Positions 24,348 to 53,018 are shown, counted from the stretch's first letter. The stretch is 64,000 nt of DNA from Candidatus Saccharimonadia bacterium (GCA_035479295.1 DATIIV010000012.1:65010-129009), one strand, 5' to 3'. Notes: generated by a model from the letters alone, not told the origin. Translations and numbers: made by a program.

Positions 24348-25106
24348 ATGGACATCCCATTAACCGCCATAACAACCGCCATCGGCGTCCTCGTCATGTT
24401 TGGCGCCTGGTTCTTTGTGGGGCAGCGCATGAGGCAGAGCCACGTCGCCGTTCTGCGCCCCGTGCAGCTGTTCAACCAATTCTTTTTGAGCATGGCCGTC
24501 TTCTTTACCATCATGGCCGTGCCGCATATCTGGCTGTTCATCGACCCGAGCCAGTTCCCGATCTGGATGGCCTGGGGTTATGTGGTTGGCCACATTTTCT
24601 TGTACCTGGCCTTCATTAATATCATCCGCATGACCTTTACCATCGTGCCCAAGCTGACGCCCAAGGCGCCGTTGGCCGTAGGGGCCGCTATCGTCGTTAC
24701 CGTGGCGGTCACCATCATTAATGCCGTTACTATGATCTTTGGCACGCGCCCCAGCTACGACTACGTGCAGCATGTCACCCAGTTTAACGCCTCGCCGATT
24801 GTGGGCGCTTCCATTGGGATCTTTGCGGCGCTGGCGGTCTTTCCGCCGGCCATCTTATTTATTGTTAACGCCTTTAAGGCGCAGGGCAATCGGCGGGTGC
24901 GGTCGCTCATTCTGGGCATTGGGCTCATTTTGCTTATGACGGCTGGCCCACTGCACGATGTGGCCAAGAACTGGCAGACTTACATGCTGGCTGATATCTT
25001 CTCGATCTTGAGCATCATCGTCACCGGCACCGGCGTCGTCTACCGCCTGGAGCAGAGCCTCACCGTGGAGCCGCAGCCCGTGCCCGCCCCTACAGCTGGT
25101 CGATGA
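24348..25106 (+). CDS. 7-TM membrane protein, unknown family (paralog 2)
   Basis: 252 aa with the same helix pattern and motifs as 23531..24283. The 3' end overlaps the convergent histidine kinase gene by 17 nt. Confidence 0.75.
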   Translation: MDIPLTAITTAIGVLVMFGAWFFVGQRMRQSHVAVLRPVQLFNQFFLSMAVFFTIMAVPHIWLFIDPSQFPIWMAWGYVVGHIFLYLAFINIIRMTFTIVPKLTPKAPLAVGAAIVVTVAVTIINAVTMIFGTRPSYDYVQHVTQFNASPIVGASIGIFAALAVFPPAILFIVNAFKAQGNRRVRSLILGIGLILLMTAGPLHDVAKNWQTYMLADIFSILSIIVTGTGVVYRLEQSLTVEPQPVPAPTAGR

Positions 25107-26754: not shown

Positions 26755-26757
26755 GGG

Positions 26758-27165
26758 CTACTCAGACTCGAGCGTCGGCGCCTCTTTGGCCGGCAGGTTC
26801 AGGTGCTGGCGCAGGCGAGCCATGACATCGGCAATAACGACCTGCGACTTCACCAGATAATCGTCGGCACCCAGCTCTTTGGCCCGGGCCTGATCGTTGG
26901 CTTGACCCAGCGCCGACAGAATCACGATCTTAATGCGGCTCGTCTCGGGCGTATGGCGCAGAATATCCAGCACGTCAAAGCCGTTGAGGCGCGGCATCAT
27001 AATATCGAGCAGGATCAGATTGGGCTTAAAGTCGCGGGCAGCCTGCAGCGCCTCTTCGCCATTACTGCAATGCTTTACCTCGAAGCCCTCGGCCTCCATG
27101 CGCATTTGGTAGAGGCTGGCTAGGGTGAGGTCGTCTTCGACCAGTAGGATGCGGGGTTGACTCAT
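26758..27165 (-). CDS. receiver-only (CheY-like) response regulator
   Basis: ILLVEDD, phospho-acceptor context LILLDIMMPRLNGFDVL, IVILSAL, and DDYLVKS (conserved Lys). At 135 aa there is no output domain. Confidence 0.9.
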   Translation of the reverse strand: MSQPRILLVEDDLTLASLYQMRMEAEGFEVKHCSNGEEALQAARDFKPNLILLDIMMPRLNGFDVLDILRHTPETSRIKIVILSALGQANDQARAKELGADDYLVKSQVVIADVMARLRQHLNLPAKEAPTLESE

Positions 27166-29379: not shown

Positions 29380-30366
29380 GTGACAGCTTACGCAGAAGTG
29401 GCCGATGGCCACTGGGTCCGTCCCTCATTTAGCGCCTATGAACTTGAGGTGGCGGAGCGAATTCTAGCCGGCTATTCTCACAAGGTGTTGGCGCAGTGGC
29501 GTGCCCAATGCGTGGGCGCGGAACGAACGGATACGTCGATCACTTCGGTGCTGACTCGCTTGGGCCGGTTGGTTGCACGAGGCGATTCGATTCGCCTGAC
29601 GGTCATCATGGCGGAGCTGAGCTTAATTAAGCTGCCGAATGTGCAGCCCTGGGAAACTGATGCCTTGATGGAATCGGGCCTCAGTTTTGCCTGGGAACAG
29701 ATCCTGGAGCTGGCCATGAATGGCTGCAGCGCTCAACAGATCGCGACGAGGCTAAACCTCAGCTTCTCGCAGGTTCGAGGGCGGATCAGAATGTTACGCT
29801 ACTCCGGCGCGTTTAGGCAGTCTAGACTAATCCGACAGGTGGCAGTTTGGCTGACAACGAGATCTTTCATTCCGGACCGGCTTTCGAAGCGGCCGGTGGT
29901 TCAGGGGCCTCTGCTCTGGCATTACCTGATGGGCTACGATGAAGTGGAGACTCAGAGGCGACTTAACTGCGTCCCGTGGGTGGTGCCAACTTGGACAGCT
30001 CAAATGTTGACGCGCCTGAGAGAGACCTCGCTACTCAGAAGTTGTTTGGACGGCGTGAATAGCGGTAGGCTGCGGCTACCCTATCCACTGCGAGGATCCG
30101 TGGAGGCGCTGACTAAGCAGCCGCTTAGCTCTCGGTGCGTGGAGGAGCTGCGCGATCACGTGATGCGCGCTCGGAATATGACCCTTCAGCAGCAGGCTGC
30201 ACTACGTCAGCCTCAGCCTGATTGGCACGACATCTGTCGTGAGGTGCGCGTCGATACGCCCTGGCAGGCCCTGATGGTTGGGGCGGGTTATGTGTCTAGG
30301 CTAGATCAGTGTGGTGCTTTGGCGCCTCCGAACGCCTACAAGGGAGACGCACAGAATGGCAGCTAG
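29380..30366 (+). CDS. protein of about four tandem LuxR/GerE-type HTH-like modules (paralog 1)
   Basis: GTG start after GGGAG. The best module is LSFAWEQILELAMNGCSAQQIATRLNLSFSQVRGRIRMLR. Three more degenerate modules are colinear with the next gene, for example GPLLWHYLMGYDEVETQRRL and TPWQALMVGAGYVSRL. Confidence 0.6.
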   Translation: MTAYAEVADGHWVRPSFSAYELEVAERILAGYSHKVLAQWRAQCVGAERTDTSITSVLTRLGRLVARGDSIRLTVIMAELSLIKLPNVQPWETDALMESGLSFAWEQILELAMNGCSAQQIATRLNLSFSQVRGRIRMLRYSGAFRQSRLIRQVAVWLTTRSFIPDRLSKRPVVQGPLLWHYLMGYDEVETQRRLNCVPWVVPTWTAQMLTRLRETSLLRSCLDGVNSGRLRLPYPLRGSVEALTKQPLSSRCVEELRDHVMRARNMTLQQQAALRQPQPDWHDICREVRVDTPWQALMVGAGYVSRLDQCGALAPPNAYKGDAQNGS

Positions 30367-31258
30367 CGATCTCGCTTGGGAGAATCCCTCGGAGCGACAG
30401 ATCTGCCAGCTTGTACTGGAGGGGAACAGCATACTTGGCATTGCCGAGCAGCTGGGACTGAGCCCCGGTGGCGTCAGAAGCAAGCTCAACCGAGTTCATA
30501 CCAGAACTGGCATTCACGGCCGGTCAGCGATGATCTTAGCGCTGACCGAAGCGGGCGTTCTAACCGTGCCGATCAGCCGAGCCCAGCAGCTAAAGACCTC
30601 TCCGGCGGTAATTCAATCTGACCCTTTCTGGTTGTTGCTAGCGGAGATATCGATGCTGGACGTCAGTCTCGGCTGGCTCAACAGTGCCTCTGGTCGCTCG
30701 GTTAAGCAGATTGACAAGCTGTGTGGCCGAGTTACTCGATTAATGCATAAGGCACACCCGGGTAGGTCCGTGCTTAACCAGATGGCAATCGATCGTGCTA
30801 TCCTGGGATCGATCCAACTGCCGCAGGCATCTCAACTGCAGCTGGTTTGGGGGCCGCTGCTATGGTACCTGCTGATGGGCTATGCGCCGCAGGAAATAGC
30901 CCTTGCTCTTTGCAAGAAAGGTTGGGTGATACCGGCGAAGAGATTAGTGGATCAATGGCTGGTGCGTTTGTGGAAGCAATGCGGCAGCGCTGGTGTGGCC
31001 CCGACACTCGTGCGGCTCGTGCGGCAGCGTCAGGTGCAGCTGCCCTATGTGCTGCAGCGGGCCACTGATCGGCTGAAGTTCATGGTGCCGGATGCTGCGC
31101 TGAGCGAGCAGTTAGATCAATGTTACGATACACTGGTGCGGCGGAGTCTGCCGCTGGGCGTTAACCTTAAAGACCAGTTTGGGCTCTGCGACCGCCTGGG
31201 AGTGGCCAATCCCTGGCAGGCTATGTTGGTGGCCGCCTATTTGGGGCGGCTGCGGTAA
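30356..31258 (+). CDS. protein of about four tandem LuxR/GerE-type HTH-like modules (paralog 2)
   Basis: ATG at 30356 follows AGGGAG and overlaps the upstream stop by 11 nt. The canonical module is PSERQICQLVLEGNSILGIAEQLGLSPGGVRSKLNRVHTRTGIHGRSAMILALTEAGVL. Further modules are GPLLWYLLMGYAPQEIALAL... and ...LCDRLGVANPWQAMLVAAYLGRL. Confidence 0.7.
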   Translation: MAASDLAWENPSERQICQLVLEGNSILGIAEQLGLSPGGVRSKLNRVHTRTGIHGRSAMILALTEAGVLTVPISRAQQLKTSPAVIQSDPFWLLLAEISMLDVSLGWLNSASGRSVKQIDKLCGRVTRLMHKAHPGRSVLNQMAIDRAILGSIQLPQASQLQLVWGPLLWYLLMGYAPQEIALALCKKGWVIPAKRLVDQWLVRLWKQCGSAGVAPTLVRLVRQRQVQLPYVLQRATDRLKFMVPDAALSEQLDQCYDTLVRRSLPLGVNLKDQFGLCDRLGVANPWQAMLVAAYLGRLR

Positions 31259-31315: not shown

Positions 31316-32113
31316 CTACACCTCCACCGTCTTTATCGTCCACATATCCCAGGCCAGGCCGCGATTGCCCAGGTAGGCGAACGGCAGGTAAAAATACCCC
31401 TTATCGCCCCAACCGGTGCCCCAAGAGTTGCGGCCAATGAACTGCTGCTTGGTCTGGTCGTAGCCCACAATCAGTACGGCGTGGCCGCCCAGCAGTTTCT
31501 CGCTCTTGTGGGGCAGAGGAATGACGCCGGTCGTATTAGCGGCTGGGCTCTCAAAGCTCTCATACACTGAGATACCGGTAATGAACGGGTAGCCGCTAGC
31601 TAGGCAGGCCAGCATATCGCCGAAGGGATTGAGGTGATGGGTGACGATGCGCTGATAGGTAAGGGCTTGATTTTTTTCGGCTTCATCAAAGCACTTTTTG
31701 GTAGGCTTAACGGTAAACTTGGTAATGTCGTAAGGCCAATCCGTCTCGGGTGCGCTCCCAATCTTAACGAGAACTTTAACACCATCGCGCAGCCGGGCGC
31801 CGGCATCGCTGTTAACCGTGCCTTCCACATCGCGCTCGTTCCAGTAAATAAAAAGACGGCTCGGTGTCATAAAGGCCTTGCCCTCTTGGTGGCGGTCAAA
31901 GTCGAAAGCGGCGGCCAGCGCGTTAGCGGTGCAGCTGCCCAAGTGGCCTTGGTTGTAAATGGGCGGACATTTGTGGCGCAGATCGGCCTGGGGCGGCAGG
32001 GGAGCGGCTACTTGGGCTAGGGCGGCCGTGCCGTCAAAGATGTGGTCCCGTTGGTCGGGTAGGTCGGGTAGCCAGCCGAGGCCGTGGTTTTGAGGAGTAA
32101 CGTTGTGTGCCAT
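31316..32113 (-). CDS. papain-like (C1 family) cysteine peptidase, no signal peptide (paralog 1)
   Basis: Catalytic context NQGHLGSCTANAL (Gln/Cys), GGHAVLIVGYD (His) and GRNSWGTGWGDKGYFYLP (Asn-Ser-Trp). The N-terminus has no hydrophobic signal. Confidence 0.9.
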   Translation of the reverse strand: MAHNVTPQNHGLGWLPDLPDQRDHIFDGTAALAQVAAPLPPQADLRHKCPPIYNQGHLGSCTANALAAAFDFDRHQEGKAFMTPSRLFIYWNERDVEGTVNSDAGARLRDGVKVLVKIGSAPETDWPYDITKFTVKPTKKCFDEAEKNQALTYQRIVTHHLNPFGDMLACLASGYPFITGISVYESFESPAANTTGVIPLPHKSEKLLGGHAVLIVGYDQTKQQFIGRNSWGTGWGDKGYFYLPFAYLGNRGLAWDMWTIKTVEV

Positions 32114-32283: not shown

Positions 32284-32679
32284 ATGGCATTGCGAATTCT
32301 GATTGTCGAAGATTCGGTTAGCATTCGTATGTTGTACCAGGAGGTGCTACACAAGGCGGGCTATGAGGTCGAGGTGGCGACGGACGGCCAGGTAGCCTTG
32401 AGGCTGGCTCAGGCGCAGCCGTTCGACTGTATTGTGGTTGACATGTTGATGCCAAACCTTGATGGGCTGGCCTTTCTTAAGGCCTTTGATTGTCGACGTC
32501 ATCCCAAGACGCGCGTGATCATGGCCAGCAACTTGGACGATCCGCAGAAACGCGAGCAGGCGCTGGCGCTGGGTGCGGCCGCCTACATCATCAAGGCCGA
32601 GGTGTCGTTGCCGGAGTTATTGCGCAAGATTGATCCGACGCGGCCTGCTCCCGGAGCTTCGGCCGAGGGCGTGCATTAA
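32284..32679 (+). CDS. receiver-only response regulator
   Basis: ILIVEDS, CIVVDMLMPNLDGLAFL, VIMASNL, AAYIIKAE. 131 aa, ending 30 nt before zwf. Confidence 0.9.
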   Translation: MALRILIVEDSVSIRMLYQEVLHKAGYEVEVATDGQVALRLAQAQPFDCIVVDMLMPNLDGLAFLKAFDCRRHPKTRVIMASNLDDPQKREQALALGAAAYIIKAEVSLPELLRKIDPTRPAPGASAEGVH

Positions 32680-32709: not shown

Positions 32710-34035
32710 ATGGATGATATTCAGTCTCAGCCTATCTTTTTGATTATTGTTGGCATCTCGGGCGATTTGGCGCGTCGCAAGCTCTTGCCGGCTCTGCGCC
32801 AGATTGCGGCGGCGGGTGAGTTGCCACGCGAGTTTCGGGTTATCGGCATCACCCGCCGGCAGCTCAATGTGGCCAGCCTAACGGCCGGCGATGCCTTTTT
32901 GGCCGCGCACCTGGAGCTCTACCAAATGGATCTGGCCGAAGTCGCGGCCTACGACGGCCTTAAGCGACATCTGGCACAGCTCGAGCAGCAGTTGGGCGGC
33001 GCGGCTCAGCGGCTGTATTATCTCTCGGTGCCGCCGCAGGTGTCTGGGCCAATCGTGCAATTATTGGGCGAGTCTGGCTTAGCGGCTATGCCAGACAGTA
33101 AGTTGCTGCTCGAGAAGCCGTTTGGCACCGATCTCGCTTCGGCTGAGGACTTTATTGCCCACACCCAGCGCCACTTTACCGAGGACCAAATCTACCGCAT
33201 CGACCACTACTTGGCCAAAGAGATGGCTCAGAATCTGCTGGTATTTCGGGGCGGCAATGCGCTGTTTCGGCGCACCTGGAACCATGAGTTTATCGAGCGC
33301 ATCGAGCTGCTGGCCAGCGAAGAGATCGGCATTGAGGGTCGCTCGGCCTTTTACGAGCAGACCGGCGCGCTGCGCGATTTGGTGCAGAGCCACCTGCTGC
33401 AGCTGGCGGCTCTCACGCTCATGGAGGTCCCGCCGGCCGGCGACGAGACCCAGCTGCGGGCGGCCCGGCTCGCCGCCTTGCAGGCGCTGCAGCCGCCGGT
33501 CGATAGTACGCGGGATGTGCGCCGCGGCCAGTATATTGGCTACCGGGCCGAGGTGGCCAACCCCGCTAGTGCCACCGAGACGTTTGTATCGCTGACGCTC
33601 CGATCGCACGATCCGCGCTGGCAGGGTGTGCCCATTACGCTCACAACCGGCAAAGGCCTGGCGCGCAAAACCACCGAAATTCGAATTCATTATCGTCAGA
33701 GCGAGGCCGACGAAGCCAATGAGCTGGTGCTGCGCGTGCAGCCGCGCGAGGGCATCGAGCTTGATCTGTGGGCCAAGCGACCCGGCTACGACCATCGGCT
33801 CGAACGCGTGCCGCTCGAGTTTGCCTACAGCCGTCACTTCGACTCGCTGCCGGAGGCCTACGAGCGCGTGCTGGTCGACGCCATGCGGTCGCGCCGCAGT
33901 CTGTTTGCTTCGAGCGAGGAGGTACTGGCCTCGTGGCGCATCCTGGCGCCGGTGCAGCGGGCTTGGGGCATGAGCGATAAAGACTTAATCCTCTATCCGC
34001 TTGGCAGTGAGCCGGCCGCCGTCATTGGTCGGTAA
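32710..34035 (+). CDS. zwf: glucose-6-phosphate 1-dehydrogenase
   Basis: Dinucleotide-binding IVGISGDLARRKLLPAL, active-site RIDHYLAKE, and EKPFG. At 441 aa it is shorter than typical Zwf. Confidence 0.9.
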   Translation: MDDIQSQPIFLIIVGISGDLARRKLLPALRQIAAAGELPREFRVIGITRRQLNVASLTAGDAFLAAHLELYQMDLAEVAAYDGLKRHLAQLEQQLGGAAQRLYYLSVPPQVSGPIVQLLGESGLAAMPDSKLLLEKPFGTDLASAEDFIAHTQRHFTEDQIYRIDHYLAKEMAQNLLVFRGGNALFRRTWNHEFIERIELLASEEIGIEGRSAFYEQTGALRDLVQSHLLQLAALTLMEVPPAGDETQLRAARLAALQALQPPVDSTRDVRRGQYIGYRAEVANPASATETFVSLTLRSHDPRWQGVPITLTTGKGLARKTTEIRIHYRQSEADEANELVLRVQPREGIELDLWAKRPGYDHRLERVPLEFAYSRHFDSLPEAYERVLVDAMRSRRSLFASSEEVLASWRILAPVQRAWGMSDKDLILYPLGSEPAAVIGR

Positions 34036-34750
34036 TCGCTGCCATAAAGGCCGCTGCAATCGCTGCATAACCTCGCTCGTTGGGATGGAATCGGTCGGCG
34101 GCTAGCTTGCCCGTCCAGGGCAGGGCAAAGGCCGGCCCCATATCTGCTATTTTGAGTCCACGCTGCTGAGCCTGTCGATGCAGAAGCCGGCTGGCCGCTC
34201 GGTAGCGCAACACCGGTGCTAGCAGCGGCGGAATGTTAGGTCGGGCAAAGATATCGGCTACCACGGCGCCGTGTGGCAGCTGCATGAGCAAATGGTCGAG
34301 CCGCCGGAGCAGATGGCGGCGACCGCCGGGCTGAACCAAATCGTTGGAGCCGATCATAACGGTGATCAGATCGGGCCGGAGGCCCAGCTGATCCAGCACC
34401 GGCAGTTGATGATCGATCACGTCCTGAATTCGCCCACCACTAACCGATAGATTGATGAGTCGGTAGCTCCGACCGACCGCAGCTAGCCGTGCGTGGGCCT
34501 GGCCGACCCAGCCGCGGTCGTAGGCCGGGGCGCCAATGCCCTGCGACATCGAGTCGCCGAGTACCACCCACAGCCGGCCCGACCCACCAAGGGCTTGCTC
34601 ATTGGCTTGGTGCCAGGCCGCCGCATACGGCTCTGCTTGGTCTTGCACGGCTCGAAGCGACGGCCACAACTGCCGCAGTAACCGCCGTCCCAAGGCCAAG
34701 CTTGGGTGTAGGGGAGTGCGCCGCTGATAGGAGTTGGTCGCCAAAGCCAC
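34022..34750 (-). CDS. SGNH/GDSL-family hydrolase (esterase/lipase-like)
   Basis: Block I VVLGDSMSQGIG, block III IGSNDL, block V DRFHPNERGY. The GTG start is 8 nt downstream of the histidine kinase stop, suggesting the same operon. Confidence 0.8.
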   Translation of the reverse strand: MALATNSYQRRTPLHPSLALGRRLLRQLWPSLRAVQDQAEPYAAAWHQANEQALGGSGRLWVVLGDSMSQGIGAPAYDRGWVGQAHARLAAVGRSYRLINLSVSGGRIQDVIDHQLPVLDQLGLRPDLITVMIGSNDLVQPGGRRHLLRRLDHLLMQLPHGAVVADIFARPNIPPLLAPVLRYRAASRLLHRQAQQRGLKIADMGPAFALPWTGKLAADRFHPNERGYAAIAAAFMAAITDQ

Positions 34751-34758
34751 GGGCCGGT

Positions 34759-36987
34759 TTAGCTCTGGGCGGCGGCGCCAGACTCAGCCGTTTTGGCTCT
34801 AGCCTTAGCTTCGGCCGCTGCTCCGTTGGGTTGCGGCAGCACAATTACCGAAGTGGTCTTAAGCGGCAGCGCGAAGCCAAAGATGCTACCCTTGCCCTCC
34901 TCGGACTTAAAAATAATCGAGCCACCTTGGTCCTCGATCACGCGCTTAGCTAGGTACAAGCCCAAGCCGGTGCCGTCCGGCCGCTCGGCCTTGGCGTTCT
35001 CGGCCCGGTAAAACTTGGAGAACAGGTGACGCTTCTCGTTCTCTGGCACGCCAATGCCGCTATCGATTACCAGCACCTCGGCAGCGCCCTCAGACTCGCG
35101 CACCTCCACCGTGACGCTGCCCTTGGGCGTGTAGTAAATGGCATTATCGATAAAATTCATAATCACCTGGCGCGTCTTGCTCTCGTCGATCGACAGCATG
35201 GGCAGCGGCTTGTCGGGCTGCTTAAAGATGAGTTCCAGCTTCTTGCGCTCGGCGCTCGGCCGCAGCTGCTGCACCTCCTGCTGGGCCAGCTCGCTCAAGT
35301 CCACCGGCTGGCGCTGAATCATAAACCGCCCCGAGCTCAGTCGCGACACATTCAGCAGATCGCTCGACATCGACACCATCCGCTCGGCCGCCTCTAGCGC
35401 GTAGTTAACATACTCGCGCTGCTTCACCGTCATGTTGGCCTGGTCGTCATCGAGCGCCATCGACAAGTAGCCGGTAATGGCGGTCAGCGGCGTGCCCAGC
35501 TGGTGCGACGCCATCGAGATGAAGTCGTCTTTGGTCTTATCCAGCACCTGCAAGTTGCGGTTGGCGGTGCGCAGTCGGTGCGTCGCATTGCGAATCCGCT
35601 CCTGCAGCGTGGCGTTAAAGTGGGCGATCTCTTCGTAGGATTTAGCGTTCTCAATCGCTACGGCTAGTTCTTTGCGGACGATATCGAGCAGCGTCAGATC
35701 CTGGCCCGAATACATTTCGCCACTCATCTTGTAGCCCAGGAAGAGATAGCCCACTAGCTCTTTCTCGGTGCTTAACCTAATAATGACGCCTAGGCCATGC
35801 TCCTCTAGGAATGATTTGGTTGCACCGGGCTCAAGCTCATCTGCTACCAAGGTGCTAGCGTTAATGTGCTCTAAATCCTTGTAGGTAAGTTTATAACGGG
35901 GCTCGTCACCAATGAATGTACGACTATAAATACTGTTGTTCTCGACAATGATGATTTGACCAGTAGCGATGCGCAATGACCAACAGAGCGTGCGCAATGA
36001 CTTCTTGAGGAGCGGTTCAAGTAAGAGCTCTGAAGTCAGAATCTCGCTTAAATCATCGAGCACGATCTGACTGTCGTAGCGATCTCGAAAGAATATGCTG
36101 TCGGTGACCTTCTCGAACAGTCGGCGTAAAGGCTGAAAGGTAATGGCTAGAAATAGCGCCAGGGCAACAAAGACACCAGTTTGGGCTAGCGGGATATTAT
36201 TCTGAAAGAGAATGTTGCTTGCCGCTAGGATGGTAATTCCATACAGGCCAATAAAAGTTGTAAGAAGCAAAAGATAGGCAACTGATCGGGCGACGGCTAG
36301 CCTGATACTAAAGAGTCGATGCTTAACGATAGCGTACGAGACCGACCCCACCAAGAAAACGGTTAGCAATGGGCCGATGCGCGATATGTCCCAGTTGCCG
36401 ACGATAGCCGGAATGACAATGTTTGTGAGCACAGCCAAGATAATAAAACCCGCTATTCCCAGCATAATAAGACGAGTTTGAGCGCGAAGCCGCAAGTCGA
36501 TTCCAGTGTTCCGGTACAGCTTCCAGAGGTAGTAGCAAGATAGTCCAAACATCACCAAGATGAAAATGGGGTAGAGAGTATAAAGGCTGCCGAGAGCAAC
36601 GTTGGTTCCTCCGTCGGGCCGCTTTGAGACGGGACCAACCACGAAATCGCTTAAAGAGAAGATGGTGCCAGCAATAATAATGACGGCACTAACAAGCTGT
36701 CTCCGCTTGCTGGCGCTTTGTTTGCCGCCAAAGTAAAACGCAAACAACGTTATGGTGGCTAACACGAGAAAACCGGCGCCAAAGTCAAGGCGAGCAAAGA
36801 ACTGATCAAGGCCAAGCGTGGGAGCTCGGTCGGTAAGATAATTGAAGATCGTCCAGGCGGTGATTGACAGGGAGATGCCAAAAAACGCCCGACTCTCGGC
36901 TCGCTGAGGGTTACGCATAAACACGAGCGAGCCGAGAGCCAAATTGCTTACTGAGGCGAGTATGAGGATGGCGAGGTCAAATATCAT
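34759..36987 (-). CDS. multi-TM + GAF sensor histidine kinase (HisKA_7TM/PrsK-like architecture), paralog A
   Basis: About nine N-terminal TM helices (MIFDLAILILASVSNLALGSLVFMRNP...). GAF-like block (LVGYLFLGYKMSGEMYSGQDLTLLDIVRKELAVAIENAKSYEEI). H-box FISMASHQLGTPLT, N-box NFIDNAIYYT, DSGIGV, GTGLGLYLAK. ATGA overlap with the upstream gene. Confidence 0.9.
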   Translation of the reverse strand: MIFDLAILILASVSNLALGSLVFMRNPQRAESRAFFGISLSITAWTIFNYLTDRAPTLGLDQFFARLDFGAGFLVLATITLFAFYFGGKQSASKRRQLVSAVIIIAGTIFSLSDFVVGPVSKRPDGGTNVALGSLYTLYPIFILVMFGLSCYYLWKLYRNTGIDLRLRAQTRLIMLGIAGFIILAVLTNIVIPAIVGNWDISRIGPLLTVFLVGSVSYAIVKHRLFSIRLAVARSVAYLLLLTTFIGLYGITILAASNILFQNNIPLAQTGVFVALALFLAITFQPLRRLFEKVTDSIFFRDRYDSQIVLDDLSEILTSELLLEPLLKKSLRTLCWSLRIATGQIIIVENNSIYSRTFIGDEPRYKLTYKDLEHINASTLVADELEPGATKSFLEEHGLGVIIRLSTEKELVGYLFLGYKMSGEMYSGQDLTLLDIVRKELAVAIENAKSYEEIAHFNATLQERIRNATHRLRTANRNLQVLDKTKDDFISMASHQLGTPLTAITGYLSMALDDDQANMTVKQREYVNYALEAAERMVSMSSDLLNVSRLSSGRFMIQRQPVDLSELAQQEVQQLRPSAERKKLELIFKQPDKPLPMLSIDESKTRQVIMNFIDNAIYYTPKGSVTVEVRESEGAAEVLVIDSGIGVPENEKRHLFSKFYRAENAKAERPDGTGLGLYLAKRVIEDQGGSIIFKSEEGKGSIFGFALPLKTTSVIVLPQPNGAAAEAKARAKTAESGAAAQS

Positions 36988-37796
36988 GCGGGCGTAGGTC
37001 CTGTAAATGCTGGAAACTTGAAGACTTCTTGAAGACCCTCGCCCCGGAACAGCCAGCCAAATCGCTTTGGGTCATTAACGCAAAGGCGCGCCATCCAGTC
37101 CTCGATATCCACCCAAACGGGCAGGCTCAGACTTGAACCAAGGTAAGGCTTCCAACCTATCCCCTCGTAGTAGCTAAAGGGTTCACCAAGTCTGCGCTTG
37201 AAGCTGTTGTGAGCGGACTCATCAACTATTGTAACCCAATAGCGAGCAGCTTGCTCTAGTGTATACTTACATGCCATGTGGTAGATCGCCTTGGCGATCC
37301 GGCCCGAGTATGCGTGGCGATGGTAGGCCGGGACTACCCCCATTGTCACCATGTCTAGCGTAGTTTTGGGGCCAAAGTCGACAGCAGCGGCTTGTAGCGC
37401 CTGAGTTAGCGGTAGGTTCCAGTACCGACCAGGCTCGCTTGACTCGATGTCGGTGAGGCTTTTAAAGCCGAGGGGCGACCGTCTGATCACTCGCAACATT
37501 CCGGCTGGTAGACCGTTTGCATGGTCGATAAGGATAAAGAATGTGCTGTAGGGATCATATGGCCCATACTCTCTCTCTAGATCCTCTGGCGTGTCCCCGT
37601 AGAAAGCGAATACGTCCGCCTCCGCCAACCGCGCGACTGGCAATGCCCAGTGCGGTGTGCCGGTTTGGGGCTCGATGCGATAGACGCCAAATGGCTGCGA
37701 TGGCGCGGCATTACCCTGGTCCATGAGGCGGCGAATCAGGTCCTTAGAGCGAATCGTCTCTTCCCACTGTTCTCGCACTAGCCCCGTAGCGACCAC
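36984..37796 (-). CDS. GNAT/LuxI-fold N-acyltransferase-like protein (tentative), cassette A
   Basis: ARLAEADVFAFYGDTPEDLEREYGPYDPYSTFFILIDHANGLPAGMLRVI parallels the LuxI/NAS block (R..VF....W....E.D.YD..S.H....G...G..R). A later segment is DMVTMGVVPAYHR...IAKAIYHMACKYTLEQAARYWVTIVD...FKRRLGEPF. The GTG start shares one base with the upstream stop (TAGTG). Confidence 0.5.
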   Translation of the reverse strand: MVATGLVREQWEETIRSKDLIRRLMDQGNAAPSQPFGVYRIEPQTGTPHWALPVARLAEADVFAFYGDTPEDLEREYGPYDPYSTFFILIDHANGLPAGMLRVIRRSPLGFKSLTDIESSEPGRYWNLPLTQALQAAAVDFGPKTTLDMVTMGVVPAYHRHAYSGRIAKAIYHMACKYTLEQAARYWVTIVDESAHNSFKRRLGEPFSYYEGIGWKPYLGSSLSLPVWVDIEDWMARLCVNDPKRFGWLFRGEGLQEVFKFPAFTGPTPA

Positions 37797-38137
37797 TAGG
37801 TCTCCTTAAACTCGATGTGTGAAGCCTTGAAATAACGCTGAGTAAACTCCACAGCGTTATTCACATTGAAAGCCTTGCAGGTATATATGTCAACGCTAAA
37901 GAAGAGGCGCGGTTGCTCCCAGGCGTATAGGTGAGCCCCCGATGTTTCCCAGTGAATCCAGCCAGCCCAGCCGTAGAGGTCTGAGCGGTGTGTCACCGGT
38001 TTGATGAGTGCTGTCATGCCTGTTACGACAGAGAGCTGTTCAAGGTAGTCTTTAATTTGGGCATCATCAATAGGTTGGGCGCAATAGCCCTCAATAATAA
38101 GCCGCTGCCGGTATATCTCCGGCGCTAGATCCCTCAC
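37796..38137 (-). CDS. S-adenosylmethionine-decarboxylase-like (AdoMet_dc fold) small protein
   Basis: GTG start after AAGGAG with an 8-nt spacer. At 113 aa it is colinear with small bacterial SpeD/SpeH: RLIIEGYCAQPID aligns with ELYGC, WIHWETSGAHLYAWEQ aligns with the (L)AESHISIHTWPE processing/active-site strand, and FFSVDIYTCKAF aligns with AALDVFTCG. Confidence 0.55.
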   Translation of the reverse strand: MRDLAPEIYRQRLIIEGYCAQPIDDAQIKDYLEQLSVVTGMTALIKPVTHRSDLYGWAGWIHWETSGAHLYAWEQPRLFFSVDIYTCKAFNVNNAVEFTQRYFKASHIEFKET

Positions 38138-38215
38138 CCCATAGCTCCTTGTTCAGGCCCATCATACTCTTCTTAGGACCGCTAAGTCTACGTAAAAAGA
38201 TGAAATTAAAGCGTT

Positions 38216-38623
38216 TTACGCCGCCCCAGCTGCTCCCGGAATCTCGTCCTTGGTATAGCCCGCCAAGATGCCGCGGACGATCTCCTCGACCTGCTTGGGC
38301 TTGTGCTCGCTCTTGATGATGTAGCGGACGGCGCCGAGCTCGAGGGCGGTCTGGACGTCGCTGTTGCCGGCCAGGTTGGTGAGCACCACCACCGGAAGAT
38401 TGGCCACGGCCGGATCGGCCTTGAGCTGCTTGAGCACCTCCATGCCGTTAAGCTTGGGCATCATGATGTCGAGCAGAATGAGCGTGGGGTTAACCGAGCG
38501 TGCTTTGTCGAGGCCCTCTTGGCCGTCGGTGGCCAGTTCAACCTCGTAATTATTCGAGGCAAAGATCGTCTGATACATCCGCGAGAGTAAGGCGTCATCT
38601 TCGATGATTAGAATCTTAGGCAC
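38216..38623 (-). CDS. receiver-only response regulator (cassette A)
   Basis: ILIIEDD, LILLDIMMPKLNGMEVL, VVVLTNL, VRYIIKSE. The preferred start is GTG 38623 with GAGG 8 nt upstream. Alternative ATG starts lie at 38650 and 38734. Confidence 0.85.
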   Translation of the reverse strand: MPKILIIEDDALLSRMYQTIFASNNYEVELATDGQEGLDKARSVNPTLILLDIMMPKLNGMEVLKQLKADPAVANLPVVVLTNLAGNSDVQTALELGAVRYIIKSEHKPKQVEEIVRGILAGYTKDEIPGAAGAA

Positions 38624-38737
38624 ACTGAAAACCTCATTTACGCCCATCATACACGAGGCAAGCGAGAAGCGGAAGCCCTTAAGCATAAGCTTTATCAAAG
38701 GACAAATTTCGCGGTTGAGCCGATGGAGCGGCAAATG

Positions 38738-39106
38738 TTAGGACAGGAACGTGAGCGCGCAGGCCGCAAAGATGATGGCAATATCGCGAAAGGTGATGTC
38801 GAGCGAGCCGAGGTTGACTACCATAATGGCCACGGTGGTGGCGGCCGTCACGATGGCGGCGTACTGGCCGCGCCAGCCGGTGAGCAGCCAGATGGCCAGC
38901 GCCGCCTGGAAGGCCGAGAAGCCAGCCAACAGCAGGCTAGCCGGCGCCAGGTGTCGCAGCATGAGGGGCAGGTAGCCGATCCAGTTGTTGGGGTAGAGCG
39001 TGGCGGCCACGGCGGCGTAGGCAAACACGGCTGCGAGACCCAGCCGCAGCAAAAATCGGGCTCGCAGCACCTGGCGGGCGGTGGGCAGGGGGCGTAGTTG
39101 CTTCAT
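38738..39106 (-). CDS. small 4-TM membrane protein (possibly DoxX-like)
   Basis: 122 aa with four hydrophobic helices. The family assignment is tentative. Confidence 0.55.
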   Translation of the reverse strand: MKQLRPLPTARQVLRARFLLRLGLAAVFAYAAVAATLYPNNWIGYLPLMLRHLAPASLLLAGFSAFQAALAIWLLTGWRGQYAAIVTAATTVAIMVVNLGSLDITFRDIAIIFAACALTFLS

Positions 39107-39180
39107 GGCTGCATTATACTGCTTATGCTCAATAAGAGTTAGTGTTATGATGGCCGTACGGGGCTAATAAGAGGACGATT

Positions 39181-39603
39181 ATGAAGAATAAGAACGTTAT
39201 TATAACGCTCGTGGTAGCGATTATTATCGTGGTAGCGGTAGCAATTTATCTGGCTATGGCCGGAGGCAAAACCACCGGTAGCCCAATGGCTTCGGCCTCG
39301 CCGACGCCGCAAGCGGTGCCGAGTAGTCAGGCCGTGTCCACTATTAAGTACAATGTCTCGGGCGGCTTTAGTCCTAGCTCGGTCACTATTAAGTCGGGCC
39401 AGGCTATCACCTTTACGAATGATTCGGCCGACGAGATTCAGGTCGACTCCGATCCGCACCCCACGCACACCGATAATCCCGAGCTGAATGTGGGCACCAT
39501 TGCGGCTGGGCAGAGCCAGACCATTAAGCTAACCACCGCCGGCAGCTGGGGCTACCACAACCACCTCAACCCGAGCGACAAGGGGCGCGTGATCGTACAG
39601 TAG
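39181..39603 (+). CDS. membrane-anchored cupredoxin-fold-like protein lacking the Cys ligand
   Basis: N-terminal TM. A beta-sandwich-like C-terminus with FSPSSVTIKSGQAITFTNDS, DSDPHPTH and GSWGYHNHLNPSDKG. His-rich motifs are present but there is no Cys. Confidence 0.5.
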   Translation: MKNKNVIITLVVAIIIVVAVAIYLAMAGGKTTGSPMASASPTPQAVPSSQAVSTIKYNVSGGFSPSSVTIKSGQAITFTNDSADEIQVDSDPHPTHTDNPELNVGTIAAGQSQTIKLTTAGSWGYHNHLNPSDKGRVIVQ

Positions 39604-39607
39604 GCGA

Positions 39608-39638
39608 GGCCGGCCGGGCAAGAGACGCCCGGCCGGCC
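39608..39638. terminator. bidirectional hairpin terminator
   Basis: GGCCGGCCGGGC-AAGAGAC-GCCCGGCCGGCC: a 12-bp stem between convergent genes. Confidence 0.7.
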
Positions 39639-39658
39639 ATAATTTGGTGGTTACGCTT

Positions 39659-40444
39659 CTATGCCTCCACGAGCTTGATGGTCCACAGATCGGAGGTCAG
39701 CTCGCGATCGGTGAGGTAGGCGAGCGGCAGGTAAAAGTAGCCGGCGTCGCCCCAGCGCTTGCCCCACGAGTTGCGGCAGATGAAGTAGCCAGCGGCCATG
39801 TCGTAGCCCACCACCAGGATGGCGTGGCCACCCAGGAGCTCCTCGTTGGGCTTCGGCACGGGAATGACGCCGGTGCGGTTGGCCTCGTCGCTCTCAAAGC
39901 TGGCGTAGACCGCGATGCCGGCCACGAACGGGCGGCCGGCCGCCAAGCAGCTGCGCATGTTGGTGTCGTCGCTCGTTACCTTGATGCGAGCGTACGACAG
40001 CACCTGGTTGGAGAGCGCGTCAGCGTAGCACTGGGCGGACGGCTTGACGGTGAAGCGGCTGATGTCGTACAGCCACTCGCTCTCGGGCGGCACGCCCAGC
40101 TTGGCCAGAACCTTCATGCCGTCGCGAAGGTAGGCGCCGGCGTCGGTGTCGACGGTGCCCTCGCGTGCGCGCTCATTGTAGTAAATGAACAGCCGGCTCG
40201 GGCCGATGGGCTCCTGACCCTGCCGGCGACGCTCCATGTCGTAGGCCGCCGCCAGCGCGTTGGCGGTGCAGCTGCCCAGCTGGCCCTGGTCGTACACGTC
40301 CGGGCAGTCCGGGCGCAGGTCGATGCTATTGGGCAGCTGCGAGGGGCGGATGTCTAGGCCGGCGCGGTCGAACTTGTGGTCGCGGGGGTCGCGCGGATCG
40401 GGGATATTCCCGAGGCCGTGGCCGCGGGGCGTTACGAGCGCCAT
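39659..40444 (-). CDS. papain-like (C1 family) cysteine peptidase, no signal peptide (paralog 2)
   Basis: DQGQLGSCTANAL, GGHAILVVGYD, CRNSWGKRWGDAGYFYLP. Colinear with 31316..32113 and roughly two-thirds identical by eye. Confidence 0.9.
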   Translation of the reverse strand: MALVTPRGHGLGNIPDPRDPRDHKFDRAGLDIRPSQLPNSIDLRPDCPDVYDQGQLGSCTANALAAAYDMERRRQGQEPIGPSRLFIYYNERAREGTVDTDAGAYLRDGMKVLAKLGVPPESEWLYDISRFTVKPSAQCYADALSNQVLSYARIKVTSDDTNMRSCLAAGRPFVAGIAVYASFESDEANRTGVIPVPKPNEELLGGHAILVVGYDMAAGYFICRNSWGKRWGDAGYFYLPLAYLTDRELTSDLWTIKLVEA

Positions 40445-40617
40445 AGAGGCTCCTCGATGTGGGACGGATGGGTGGCGGCGCCAAGGGCACCGTGGTTGTT
40501 ACATTACGATCTTAATTATGGCTTAGGGTAGGACAATTAATGCAAAATCCACAGATCTCTACCAGCTCAAGTTTGGGCGGAATTATCTTGCGCTACTGGG
40601 GCTGCTAATGATAGGGC

Positions 40618-40646
40618 TCGACAGCCATAAATCGATCCGCTATAGT
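40618..40646 (+). promoter_or_regulatory. sigma-70-like promoter
   Basis: TCGACA, a 17-nt spacer, then TATAGT, about 58 nt upstream of ATG 40704. Confidence 0.4.
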
Positions 40647-40703
40647 ATCAGGCGCCTTACTTTTGGCGTGGCATTCGCGCAGCATTACCGGTATGCTACA
40701 ACC

Positions 40704-42362
40704 ATGAACATAGCGGATGAACTCAAAAAGATACTCCAAGGCGAGGTTGACGATGCGCCGGCCACACTGCAAACCTATAGCCACGATGCCAGCCTCTTTG
40801 AGGTGAAGCCTCAGGTGGTGGCCTACCCCAAGGTGGCGGCCGATGTCGAGGCGCTGGTTAAGTTTGTGGCTGAGCACAAGGCCGAGCAGCCGAATCTGTC
40901 CATTACCGCTCGCAGCGCCGGCACCGATATGAGCGGTGGCGCCATCAACGACAGCATCATCGCCGACTTTAACCGCCACTTTACGGCCATCGAGGATGTC
41001 TCGGCCGACGAAGGCCACGCGCAGCCGGGCGTATTTTACCGCGACTTCGAGAAGGCCACGCTGGCCCAGGGCGCACTCATGCCCAGCTACCCGGCGAGCC
41101 GCGAGCTCTGCACCATCGGTGGCATGGTTAATAACGACTCGGGCGGCGAGAAGTCGCTCGAGTACGGCAAGACGCAAAACTTCATCAACGAGCTTAAATT
41201 CGTCTTTGCCGACGGCAAGGAGCGAGTGGTGCGGCCGCTCAACCGTGCCGAACTCGATGCCAAGATGAAGCAAGATGACTTTGAGGGCGAGGTCTACCGC
41301 AAGACCTTCGCGCTGGTGGACGGCCACTACGACCAGCTTAAGGCCGCTAAGCCGCACGTCACCAAGAATTCCACCGGCTACCATATTTGGGACGTTTGGG
41401 ATCGCGAGACTGGCATCTTTGACCTCACCAAAGTCATCGCCGGCGCCCAGGGCACGCTCGGCTTCGTTACCGATATTAAGTTCCGGCTGGTGCCGGCCCG
41501 GCCGCACTCTGGTCTGCTGGTGATGTTCTTGCACGACATCGACCGGCTGGGCGAGATTGTGCCTAAAGTGCTTGAATACAAGCCGGCCACCTTCGAGTCG
41601 TTCGACGATGTGACGCTGTGGCTGTCGATCAAGTTTATGCCGTCGTTCCTCAAGGTGCTCGGGCCGCTGCGTTTCATTAAGCTTCTCATTAGCCTCATTC
41701 CGGATGGCTTTATGCTCCTCAATGGCGTTCCCAAGCTCATTTTAATGGTTGAGTTTAACGGCGAGACTCGCGACGAAGTGCGGACCAGGATTAAAGCCTT
41801 ACACAAAGAGCTCCATCTCAAACACAGTTACTACGAGATCACCGCCACCGAAGAAGATCCCACCGAAGAGTCGTCCGAGAAGTACTGGCTGATGCGCCGC
41901 CAGAGCTTTCAATTACTGCGCAGCAAAGTCAAAGATAAGCATACGGCGCCGTTTATCGACGACCTGGTGGTGCCGCCGGAGCACCTCACGGAGTTCTTGC
42001 CCAAGATGCGGGCCATCATTAAAAAGTACGAGCTGTTTGCCACCATCGCCGGCCACATGGGCGACGGCAACTTCCACATTATTCCGCTTATGAAGCTCGA
42101 AGATCCCAAGGAGCGGGCCAAGCTGCAGCCGGCCATGAAGGAGACCAACGAGCTGGTGCTGAGCTTTGGCGGTGTGTTAAGCGGCGAGCACAACGACGGC
42201 ATGATTCGCGGGCCGTGGCTGCAGCAGGCCTATGGCGATGAAATTTACGAGATTTTTCGCCAGACCAAAGCCATCTTTGATCCGCAGGGCATCTTTAATC
42301 CCCATAAAAAGGCTACGGCCGACTGGGATTGGAGCATGAGCCACGTGCGGCAGTCGTTTTAG
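40704..42362 (+). CDS. FAD-linked oxidase (GlcD/D-lactate dehydrogenase-like)
   Basis: FAD_binding_4 region (ITARSAGTDMSGGAI, ELCTIGGMVNNDSGGEKSLEYG). C-terminal FAD-oxidase_C region (ATIAGHMGDGNFH, SGEHNDGMIR, IFDPQGIFNPHK). The first plausible ATG is at 40704. Confidence 0.9.
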   Translation: MNIADELKKILQGEVDDAPATLQTYSHDASLFEVKPQVVAYPKVAADVEALVKFVAEHKAEQPNLSITARSAGTDMSGGAINDSIIADFNRHFTAIEDVSADEGHAQPGVFYRDFEKATLAQGALMPSYPASRELCTIGGMVNNDSGGEKSLEYGKTQNFINELKFVFADGKERVVRPLNRAELDAKMKQDDFEGEVYRKTFALVDGHYDQLKAAKPHVTKNSTGYHIWDVWDRETGIFDLTKVIAGAQGTLGFVTDIKFRLVPARPHSGLLVMFLHDIDRLGEIVPKVLEYKPATFESFDDVTLWLSIKFMPSFLKVLGPLRFIKLLISLIPDGFMLLNGVPKLILMVEFNGETRDEVRTRIKALHKELHLKHSYYEITATEEDPTEESSEKYWLMRRQSFQLLRSKVKDKHTAPFIDDLVVPPEHLTEFLPKMRAIIKKYELFATIAGHMGDGNFHIIPLMKLEDPKERAKLQPAMKETNELVLSFGGVLSGEHNDGMIRGPWLQQAYGDEIYEIFRQTKAIFDPQGIFNPHKKATADWDWSMSHVRQSF

Positions 42363-53010: not shown

Positions 53011-53018
53011 CGGTAAAA

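Follow-up and report, generated by a model that had tools for sequence, protein, structure and literature searches.

A 113-aa protein with the fold of AdoMet decarboxylase (AdoMetDC), hereafter AMD-like, and a LuxI-fold acyltransferase are encoded by adjoining genes in the genome analyzed here, and the pair recurs in species genomes of two phyla, nearly always next to a membrane sensor. Its conservation, occasional fusion and sensor linkage suggest a module for lipid-amide signalling or envelope sensing that has not been described before. The most likely explanation, which we put forward tentatively, is that it forms a two-protein N-acyl-amine synthase functionally coupled to the membrane sensor in an autoinducer-like circuit. 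The stretch of DNA analyzed (64,000 nt; the window) comes from a Candidatus Saccharimonadia MAG and carries the pair in a minus-strand gene group, cassette A, together with a second, related group, cassette B.

Gene organization of cassette A

All five minus-strand ORFs that an earlier sequence-only reading had assigned to cassette A were found where it had placed them, with the overlaps it had described. They encode a REC-only response regulator (38216..38734; Pfam Response_reg, E=3e-24), whose likely start is 38647 or 38623 (the latter the GTG chosen in that reading), the AMD-like protein (37796..38137; AdoMet_dc PF02675, E=2e-11), a 270-aa LuxI/FeeM-fold GNAT acyltransferase (36984..37796; no Pfam family), a 742-aa membrane histidine kinase termed kinase A (34759..36987; HisKA_7TM, HisKA and HATPase_c) and a 242-aa SGNH/GDSL hydrolase (34022..34750; Lipase_GDSL_2, E=3e-22). 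Direct reading of the junctions showed that a TAGTG overlap, with AAGGAG 6 nt upstream, joins the 113-aa and 270-aa genes, and the latter is translationally coupled to the former through it; the kinase A start overlaps the acyltransferase stop (ATGA), and the SGNH GTG lies 8 nt past the kinase A stop.

The response regulator stop is set apart from the GTG of the 113-aa gene by 78 nt in which consensus scanning and direct reading (38161..38228, minus strand) located a terminator-like hairpin at 38228..38207 and a promoter-like TAGACT-18-TATGAT at 38190..38161, followed by AAGGAG and the GTG at 38137, the hairpin and promoter being pattern matches only. Since these signals lie within the gap and the regulator is divergently oriented in most relatives, it probably has a transcription unit of its own, apart from the AMD-like gene. 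Of the 23 loci with a kinase, 21 have a REC-only gene beside the module, in most cases divergent, and the regulator is the probable partner of kinase A.

At the other end, the SGNH gene is convergent with zwf and overlaps it. A single-sequence HMM, which very distant SGNH genes could escape, gave no SGNH match in any of the 80 related loci, and none is annotated beside the closest orthologue (62% identical; L001), where a Mem_trans gene lies on the opposite strand. The esterase, previously counted as part of the cassette, is a lineage-specific neighbour and not a conserved module member.

Conservation of the AMD-like/LuxI-fold pair

The survey set consisted of 80 species genomes carrying the AMD-like subfamily. 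A LuxI-fold gene lies directly downstream of the AMD-like gene in 72 of them, and at least two further loci (L034, L060) have divergent homologues in this position. In loci with clear ORF starts, the genes either overlap or lie within about 12 nt of each other, and one natural fusion (P0138, 381 aa) joins an N-terminal AMD-like part to a C-terminal LuxI-fold part. The pairing noticed in the window is therefore real, and the adjacency, the overlaps or short gaps and the fusion mark the two genes as one unit.

Pairs of this layout call to mind GNAT-type toxin-antitoxin systems, in which the small upstream gene would encode the antitoxin and the downstream acetyltransferase the toxin. Such a role is disfavoured to the point of being scarcely credible: unlike antitoxins, the small partner adopts an enzyme fold and keeps about 70% identity across phyla, its more than 2500 clusters being that similar to one another. 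Its fusion to the acyltransferase also speaks against this role, as does the position of the AMD-like/LuxI-fold/kinase module in several Saccharibacteria-type loci, where it is syntenic in the FolD-REC slot. Across Saccharibacteria-type loci, pairwise identities average 0.69 in the AMD-like protein, 0.41 in the kinase and 0.31 in the acyltransferase, and they correlate between acyltransferase and kinase (r=0.78) and between AMD-like protein and kinase (r=0.60), both values being confounded by shared phylogeny. The evolutionary rates would fit a specificity-determining synthase, with the same confounding of the rate correlation.

The AMD-like protein

The AMD-like protein scores 44.6 bits against AdoMet_dc PF02675 (cut-off 25), and its AF2 model (pLDDT 95.7) has T. 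maritima AdoMetDC as best Foldseek match (1tmi/1vr7, TM 0.78-0.81). The family carries the invariant motif YGWAGWIHWETSGAH.YAW...FFSVDIYTC, and in an alignment of 28 diverse members from two phyla Ser66, Cys87, Glu16 and the ETSGAH motif are all invariant, which indicates an active site under selection. Compared with the T. maritima sequence (verified against 1TLU), Ser66 aligns with the pyruvoyl Ser63 and Cys87 with Cys83, both of which are stated to be essential (PMC10407285). Judged by these residues, the protein is probably a pyruvoyl-type proenzyme. The T. maritima residue H68 is likewise named as essential, for processing as well as catalysis (PMC10407285). Its position is taken by an invariant Tyr71 in the AMD-like family, with an invariant His69 two residues earlier, so that self-processing would hinge on His69 standing in.

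The lack of His68 at the aligned position would also suit a non-catalytic subunit of the acyltransferase, acting as a scaffold, a substrate-binding or an allosteric partner. Such roles have precedents in the trypanosome AdoMetDC prozyme and in spermine synthase, whose N-terminal domain is AdoMetDC-like, and Foldseek searches with the AMD-like model also returned this domain as well as the heterodimer of the prozyme. An interaction surface could account for the extreme conservation, and the fusion with the acyltransferase in P0138 would agree with such a subunit. Invariance of Ser66, Cys87, Glu16 and the processing-turn residues across two phyla is, however, hard to explain without chemistry at this site, and we regard a non-catalytic role as improbable.

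Automatic annotation labels these proteins SAM decarboxylase. Against the SAM-decarboxylase equivalog TIGR03330, however, the AMD-like protein reaches only 20.4 bits (cut-off 75.65), and no spermidine-synthase or homospermidine-synthase family occurs in the Pfam-annotated neighbourhoods of AMD-like genes. A proline (W-P-E) separates bona fide AdoMetDC from arginine decarboxylases (PMC10407285); at the corresponding position, inferred to be T. maritima P71 as the sole proline of the central region, the window protein reads W73-E74-Q75. As precedent, arginine or ornithine decarboxylases have evolved repeatedly among SpeD homologues, and the ornithine-decarboxylase clade has an E-T-S processing site (PMC10407285). 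The SpeDC-type ornithine decarboxylase has four diagnostic residues, Gln, Thr, Phe and Tyr (PMC10407285), and comparison by OCR of Fig. S5 of that study indicated that the Thr before the Ser is common to the AMD-like family, that the Phe after the His is present in most members (Leu in the window protein) and that the Gln and Tyr are apparently absent. The subfamily is about equally distant (10-13 bits) from one bacterial SpeD, one SpeD1 domain and two ODC-type SpeD2 domains; within these few sequences, similarity to ODC-type SpeD2 is no higher than to SpeD.

The acyltransferase and cassette B

Structure searches gave a LuxI/FeeM-type GNAT fold for the 270-aa protein, with LuxI-type synthases as joint best matches, in agreement with the acyltransferase fold that had been suspected. 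It has no PF00765 match even at E<=10, matches Acetyltransf_5 (PF13444) only at E=0.24 over residues 72-108 and TIGR03694 only at E=0.13, and the family reaches none of the N-acyl amino acid synthase models (FeeM PF21926, PF13444, TIGR03694; best E=0.13-0.24); it shares profile-level homology and the same fold with bona fide PF13444/PF21926 (FeeM) members, and hhalign against LuxI gave a probability of 63%. The signature residues of LuxI are, in LasI numbering, R23, F27, W33, D44, D47, R70, E101, S103 and R104. By hhalign mapping, D47 and R70 are kept in the 270-aa family, as are E42 and Y46, D44 is replaced by G78, S103 by V/A150, R104 by T151 and E101 by D148, and the N-terminal R23-W33 segment (the SAM-binding region) does not align.

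In a version built on the sequence-only reading, the small partner would be a true SAM decarboxylase supplying SAM or decarboxylated SAM, from which the LuxI-fold enzyme would form an acyl signal, either AHL-like or derived from an aminopropyl group; the SGNH esterase would then mature this signal or break it down. The place of LuxI-type synthases among the joint best structural matches, the Pfam AdoMet_dc score and annotation of the partner and the SGNH start 8 nt past the kinase stop would agree with this proposal. It has to contend, on the other hand, with the low TIGR03330 score, with Tyr71 and Glu74 in place of His68 and the diagnostic proline, with the missing spermidine-synthase families in annotated neighbourhoods, with the loss of LuxI D44, S103 and R104 beside an unalignable SAM-binding region, and with an SGNH gene that has no match in the 80 related loci or beside the closest orthologue. 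Neither SAM nor decarboxylated SAM is supported as the substrate, and we consider this version very unlikely.

In cassette B, a plus-strand GNAT of the Acetyltransf_5/FeeM/LuxI-like type (53094..53807; PF13444, E=2e-7) matches Autoind_synth at E=3e-4 and TIGR03694 at E=2e-11, with an hhalign probability of 96.9% against LuxI sequences; its PF00765 score (20.9 bits) is below the curated cut-off of 24. It is accompanied by a 7TM histidine kinase, kinase B, that is a paralogue of kinase A (53845..56013, plus strand), a divergent PlsC-type acyltransferase (52363..53010, minus strand; PF01553), a REC-only regulator beside FolD (51913..52299, minus strand) and a second REC-only regulator overlapping the kinase B stop (56006..56455, plus strand). 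This arrangement of the second regulator is also seen in L102 and L104. The FolD-REC site of cassette B is the slot that, in other loci of the Saccharibacteria type, is occupied by the AMD-like/LuxI-fold/kinase module.

Kinases A and B are colinear, as had been noted, and 44% identical over 741 columns. The motifs quoted as common to both are present, with the one exception that kinase B alone matches 'ENKTRQVIMNF...' exactly, the sequence in kinase A being 'ESKTRQ...'. For the two acyltransferases, the shared block does not reach significance in BLASTP (E=0.16) and is recovered by hhalign (93.8%, E=1.7e-7, 162 columns); the two proteins are remote homologues by profile comparison, and not recent duplicates.

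Linked membrane sensors and the proposed circuit

The adjacency of synthase and membrane sensor is conserved across genomes and the type of sensor changes. In 23 of the 80 loci, by their record titles mostly from Saccharibacteria, a 7TM-GAF histidine kinase of the kinase A family is directly downstream, whereas 44 have an adjacent multi-TM GGDEF-EAL protein instead, nearly all Actinomycetota among the named ones; the other 13 are for the most part short contigs or loci without the acyltransferase. The pairing of synthase and kinase thus extends beyond this genome, and cassette-B-type pairs recur as well. Kinase A consists of an N-terminal 7TM region, a GAF-like linker, HisKA (E=1e-14; H-box SMASHQLGTP, His495) and HATPase_c (E=1e-23), with REC-only genes adjacent. 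The window kinases give only a weak signal for the GAF domain (GAF_2 E=0.049 for kinase B), which reaches significance in orthologues (3.9e-8). No homology was detectable between the TM sensor domains of the kinase and GGDEF-EAL proteins (hhalign probability 1%), which weighs against inferring a shared ligand-binding module.

Under the N-acyl-amine reading, the AdoMetDC-fold subunit would most likely self-process at Thr65-Ser66 to a pyruvoyl enzyme and form an amine by decarboxylation of an amino-acid-type substrate that is probably not SAM; this amine the LuxI/FeeM-fold GNAT would N-acylate from acyl-ACP or acyl-CoA to give a lipid-like N-acyl amine. The transducer in Saccharibacteria would be the co-transcribed 7TM-GAF histidine kinase, phosphorylating the adjacent REC-only regulator, and in Actinomycetota the multi-TM GGDEF-EAL protein, with c-di-GMP under its control. 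Such a circuit would most likely follow an autoinducer-like logic, the membrane sensor perceiving the amphiphilic product itself or the version made by a relative. To our knowledge, Saccharibacteria are without fatty-acid synthesis, which counts against this explanation as regards the acyl donor.

A serious rival, although we judge it rather unlikely, is membrane aminolipid biosynthesis, in which an OlsB-like GNAT would make an N-acyl amino-acid or amine lipid, the AdoMetDC-fold protein would decarboxylate the head group, as phosphatidylserine decarboxylase does for PE, and the kinase or GGDEF-EAL protein would be a sensor or regulator of envelope state instead of a receptor for a diffusible signal. 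The cassette-B GNAT matches Acetyltransf_5 and, weakly, the OlsB equivalog; cassette-B-type loci (L102-L104) conserve the divergent layout of the PlsC-type (OlsA-like) acyltransferase and the GNAT, and a Methyltransf_33 gene is also conserved in loci of this type; one AMD-like/LuxI-fold locus (L012) also has a divergent PlsC-REC pair beside it; and neither an export nor a LuxR-type component is linked. The resemblance of these PlsC-type and methyltransferase genes to membrane aminolipid biosynthesis counts against a signal, and the product could be a structural lipid. L012 is, however, the only one of the 80 loci with PlsC beside the pair, the acyltransferase evolves very fast (mean 31% identity in Saccharibacteria-type loci) with identities that correlate with those of the kinase, and sensor linkage kept across two phyla despite the change of sensor type would be unusual for housekeeping lipid genes.

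The N-acyl-amine reading can be taken further, to a new class of N-acyl-amine signal common to Saccharibacteria and Actinomycetota, which would amount to a cross-phylum chemical language behind the epibiotic lifestyle; we think this unlikely. If true, the epibiont would read the signal through its 7TM histidine kinase and the actinobacterium through the multi-TM GGDEF-EAL protein; as far as we know, all hosts recognized to date for Saccharibacteria in culture belong to the Actinomycetota.

Comparison with known systems

Class 1b AdoMetDC (SpeD/SpeH), SpeDA and SpeDC resemble the AMD-like protein in fold (TM about 0.8) and in length (about 113-130 aa), and both the processing-turn serine and the catalytic cysteine are conserved. 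The E-T-S site of the AMD-like protein resembles that of the ornithine-decarboxylase clade (SpeDC). In contrast to class 1b AdoMetDC, the histidine is at +3 from the serine instead of +5 and the diagnostic proline is missing from the subfamily; its gene context is an acyltransferase and a sensor, not speE, hss or casdh.

The 270-aa family differs from LuxI-type AHL synthases (PF00765; LasI, TofI, RpaI, BjaI) in lacking a Pfam match, D44, S103 and R104 and an alignable SAM-binding segment, in an extra N-terminal extension of about 45 aa, in the near-constant AdoMetDC-fold partner and in a linked candidate receptor that is a membrane kinase or GGDEF-EAL protein and not LuxR. It also falls below the models for FeeM (PF21926), Acetyltransf_5 (PF13444), including OlsB, and the TIGR03694 exosortase-associated acyltransferases, and no decarboxylase-fold partner for this group was found in the literature searched.

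Adjacency of LuxI-like and kinase genes in CPR is already known, 18 CPR LuxI homologues, some from Saccharibacteria, having been reported next to putative sensory kinases (Bernard et al., 2020, mSystems, PMC7567580). These pairs correspond to the cassette-B type, which does match PF00765; that survey worked from BLAST and PF00765-type matches, of which the 270-aa family yields none, and its main text contains no occurrence of an AdoMet decarboxylase homologue and no mention of the actinobacterial GGDEF-EAL linkage (PMC7567580). In the literature searched we found no earlier description of the AdoMetDC-fold partner or of the actinobacterial linkage.

Quorum-sensing pairs of a synthase and a membrane kinase include LuxM/LuxN and CqsA/CqsS of Vibrio and LqsA/LqsS/LqsR of Legionella. 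LuxM and the PLP-dependent CqsA are unrelated to the cassette A synthase, and the cassette A kinase is of the 7TM-GAF type. The gene order is nevertheless alike, as in each of these systems the genes for the signal synthase and for a polytopic histidine kinase adjoin and a response regulator is encoded close by, and in cassette A, as in the LuxM/N- and CqsA/S-type systems, the product is presumed to be lipophilic and may be sensed within the membrane.

Organization of cassette A

All five minus-strand ORFs that the sequence-only reading assigned to cassette A are present where it placed them, namely a REC-only response regulator (RR-A), a 113-aa AdoMet_dc protein (hereafter AMD-like; 37796..38137), a 270-aa protein (36984..37796), a 742-aa kinase (kinase A; HisKA_7TM, HisKA, HATPase_c) and an SGNH/GDSL hydrolase. 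Pfam bore out most of the families proposed for them. For the 270-aa protein, which is identical to a hypothetical protein encoded by a Candidatus Saccharimonadia MAG, neither Pfam nor NCBIfam searches gave a significant match. The junctions described earlier also proved accurate when the sequence was read directly: a 78-nt gap 3' of RR-A, a TAGTG overlap between the AMD-like gene and the 270-aa gene with AAGGAG upstream, an ATGA overlap between the latter and kinase A, and 8 nt from kinase A to the SGNH gene. Pattern matches place a promoter-like site and an AAGGAG 5' of the AMD-like gene and a terminator-like hairpin 3' of the RR-A gene, which suggests that the AMD-like, 270-aa and kinase genes, possibly with the SGNH gene, likely form one transcript and that RR-A is transcribed separately. 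No riboswitch or other Rfam family was found in 33500..39700.

Third-position GC is 0.59, 0.61 and 0.66 in the AMD-like, 270-aa and kinase A genes (34759..38137) and 0.53, 0.56 and 0.66 in the PlsC-type, GNAT and kinase genes of cassette B (52363..56013), with higher values in neighbouring genes (0.75-0.91; zwf, RR-A, a 122-aa gene, a C1 peptidase and FolD). The low values in both sets of core genes may stem from horizontal acquisition or from a difference in codon usage. The cassette A region is flanked by two paralogous papain-family (Peptidase_C1) proteases of ~260 aa (31316..32113 and 39659..40444, both minus strand), each shadowed by a long antisense ORF. Close to the signalling cassette, two adjacent overlapping plus-strand ORFs (29380..31258; 328 and 315 aa) have C-terminal motifs in common; their GerE/LuxR-type HTH matches all stay below threshold, and they may encode transcription regulators of an atypical kind. 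The window also holds a third two-component pair, made up of a PAS-HisKA kinase and a REC-only regulator (25090..27165, minus strand), and one more, orphan REC-only regulator that immediately precedes zwf (32284..32679, plus strand). None of the five receiver proteins detected there has an output domain. An FAD_binding_4 oxidase gene occurs a few kb from the module in the window (40608..42362, plus strand) and in other Saccharibacteria-type loci (L088, L091), and carries FAD-oxidase_C as well in the window and L091.

The AMD-like and LuxI-fold genes form a unit

An AdoMet_dc gene lies directly upstream in every contig with a homologue of the 270-aa protein. Scanning one genome per species for motifs conserved in the 113-aa protein yielded 378 genomes. 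The best 80 loci among these were analysed, mostly from Saccharibacteria and Actinomycetota (Blastococcus, Modestobacter, Geodermatophilus, Acidimicrobiia, Thermoleophilia and Actinomyces) with a few others. Gene content was taken from HMM-based detection and annotated contigs, simple ORF calling being unreliable in the high-GC actinobacterial loci. On this basis the gene for the 270-aa family, which has a LuxI fold (see below), directly follows the AMD-like gene in 72/80 of the best loci, and at least two more (L034, L060) have divergent homologues there. In loci with unambiguous ORF starts the two genes overlap slightly or stand up to ~12 nt apart, and in one protein (P0138, 381 aa) the two are naturally fused in the same order. 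A toxin-antitoxin pair was considered and rejected, because the small protein is conserved (about 70% identity over >2500 clusters; 0.69-0.72 within a phylum vs 0.65 between phyla), has an enzyme fold and occurs fused.

One Saccharibacteria locus (L045) without the LuxI-fold gene has a convergent LPG_synthase_C-like gene after the AMD-like gene (6345..7265, minus strand); judged by its similarity to aminoacyl-phosphatidylglycerol synthases, this putatively is another lipid-aminoacylation theme.

An AdoMetDC fold with an altered active site

The 113-aa protein matches PF02675 (44.6 bits), and its predicted model (pLDDT 95.7) has the AdoMetDC fold, overlaying the proenzyme from T. maritima with a TM-score of 0.78-0.81. 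By sequence, the protein alone found no match in the PDB and its family profile found chance matches only. In AdoMetDC, S63, H68 and C83 are essential, and a proline separates the true enzyme from its arginine-decarboxylase derivatives (PMC10407285). When aligned to the T. maritima sequence (checked against 1TLU), the AMD-like subfamily has invariant Ser66 and Cys87 at the positions of the pyruvoyl Ser63 and of Cys83. Tyr71, also invariant, takes the place of His68 and comes two residues after an invariant His69, and the proline of W-P-E is Glu74 in the 113-aa protein. The processing site resembles the E-T-S site of ornithine-decarboxylase domains (PMC10407285, Fig. S5), and SpeD homologues have repeatedly turned into arginine or ornithine decarboxylases (PMC10407285). 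The subfamily lies at about the same distance from each of the few sequences compared, SpeD and ODC-type alike. It is best seen as a distinct AdoMetDC-fold clade whose active site looks intact but altered.

The earlier scheme, in which the AMD-like protein would supply or modify a SAM-derived or amine substrate, draws on this fold, but a SAM substrate is unsupported: the subfamily falls far under the SAM-decarboxylase equivalog cut-off, the His68 and proline positions are replaced by Tyr71 and Glu74, and the annotated neighbourhoods hold no polyamine gene beside the AMD-like gene. The current 'S-adenosylmethionine decarboxylase' label on this partner is a mis-annotation. Less probably, the protein is a non-catalytic subunit, a reading to be weighed against the invariant Ser66 and Cys87.

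A new LuxI/FeeM-fold family

An exhaustive profile search found 964 representatives of the 270-aa family (50% clustering), 354 with E-values below 1e-30; a word-indexed search had returned only 7 relatives and so understated the family. BLASTP of the 270-aa protein against the cassette-B GNAT was not significant, and the proposed relationship between the two emerged from profile-profile comparison (hhalign probability 93.8%, E=1.7e-7, 162 columns). The cassette-B GNAT family in turn matches genuine LuxI sequences from the PDB (96.9%, E=1.3e-10), to which the 270-aa family is more weakly related (62.9%, E=7e-5). A search of the PDB by sequence with the 270-aa family profile gave chance matches only, fold comparison alone being informative. 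In LasI numbering, the LuxI residues E42, Y46, D47 and R70 are kept in the family, whereas D44 is Gly, S103 is Ala/Val and R104 is Thr, and the N-terminal SAM-binding segment of LuxI cannot be aligned. Profile, structure and residue-mapping evidence therefore identify the 270-aa protein as LuxI/FeeM-fold, in line with the earlier reading, but not demonstrably as an AHL synthase. This family, which has neither annotation nor a Pfam model, is new. One member (P0117, 670 aa) carries two tandem copies within one chain.

Two kinds of membrane sensor

The suggestion that such kinases are linked to LuxI-fold enzymes held: a kinase of the same 7TM-GAF family lies 0-60 nt downstream in 23/80 of the best loci (of 378), by record title mostly in Saccharibacteria, with one in Nomurabacteria and several in unclassified MAGs. 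A REC-only regulator, usually divergent, adjoins the module in 21/23 of these, and several annotated contigs share the order FolD-REC(-)-AMD-like-LuxI-fold-kinase. Another 44/80 loci, where named nearly all from Actinomycetota, have an adjoining GGDEF-EAL protein instead of the kinase (740-820 aa, with an unannotated N-terminal ~300 aa containing multiple TM segments), encoded either downstream in convergent orientation or, on the same strand, upstream. A sensor domain common to the kinase and GGDEF-EAL TM regions was rejected (hhalign probability 1%). Neither sensor was found in 13/80 loci, most of which are on short contigs or lack the acyltransferase. The SGNH esterase, previously counted as a cassette member, is linked to the pair in 0/80 of the best loci (of 378).

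In three CPR loci (L030, L059 and L061) two or three tandem 7TM kinase paralogues follow the pair, which suggests receptor expansion.

Cassette B and the proposed pathway

A motif search located cassette B at 53094..56013, in the FolD-REC slot of the window; 6691..9458 was also considered and rejected, as this region encodes an ABC transporter pair. As had been claimed, the two kinases are similar over their entire length (44% identity), and kinase B shares 31-47% identity with cassette-A-type kinases elsewhere, equal to the similarity among those. Cassette-B-type loci in other genomes conserve REC, Methyltransf_33, PlsC-type acyltransferase, FeeM-like GNAT, 7TM kinase and REC genes. The EgtD-like Methyltransf_33 gene lies between the PlsC-type and REC genes (L102, 3977..5209; L104, 807..2036; other Saccharimonadia) and the window's cassette B lacks it; where present, it hints at an N-methylated head group.

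Mean identity falls from 0.69 in the AMD-like protein through 0.41 in the kinase to 0.31 in the acyltransferase, and acyltransferase and kinase identities correlate (r=0.78). Because of the folds, the conserved Ser/Cys, the tight coupling, the fusion, the sensor link and these unequal rates, we infer a pathway in which the AMD-like protein, as a pyruvoyl-type decarboxylase, would provide an amine head group, the LuxI/FeeM-fold enzyme would N-acylate it, and the adjoining sensor would perceive the amphiphilic product within the membrane, with output through the REC-only regulator in Saccharibacteria and c-di-GMP in Actinomycetota. Its main rival, OlsB/OlsA-type aminolipid biosynthesis, is suggested by the related locus L012 and by the cassette-B-type loci with their PlsC and methyltransferase genes; the linkage of the pair to membrane sensors speaks against it.

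Implications and comparison with known systems

What these loci encode, a putative synthase-receptor module or putative N-acyl amide synthase that has a newly recognized near-constant partner, is well supported as a genomic entity. If the product is a signal, the module would represent new synthase chemistry for bacterial communication (a pyruvoyl-type decarboxylase with a GNAT) and a testable candidate for self- or host-sensing by ultra-small Saccharibacteria; if it is a structural lipid, the module would define a new pathway to aminolipids in organisms believed to rely on lipids from their hosts. In both cases a widespread annotation is put right, and the neofunctionalization already known for the AdoMetDC fold is extended. 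Geodermatophilaceae isolates (Blastococcus, Modestobacter and Geodermatophilus) carry the module in their genomes too, and experiments are therefore feasible.

Literature searches aimed at the AdoMetDC-fold/LuxI-fold pair found no description of it, nor was its linkage to GGDEF-EAL proteins in Actinomycetota described in the literature searched; a broader search (Saccharibacteria, kinases, acyltransferases, quorum sensing) gave only general quorum-sensing papers among the matches listed. LuxI homologues beside sensory kinases have already been reported in CPR, including Saccharibacteria (Bernard et al., PMC7567580), in a study whose main text never names an AdoMet decarboxylase. Those pairs correspond to the cassette-B type, and what is new here is the near-constant AdoMetDC-fold partner (>2500 clusters, 378 species genomes) and the wiring of the pair to membrane sensors of two output types.
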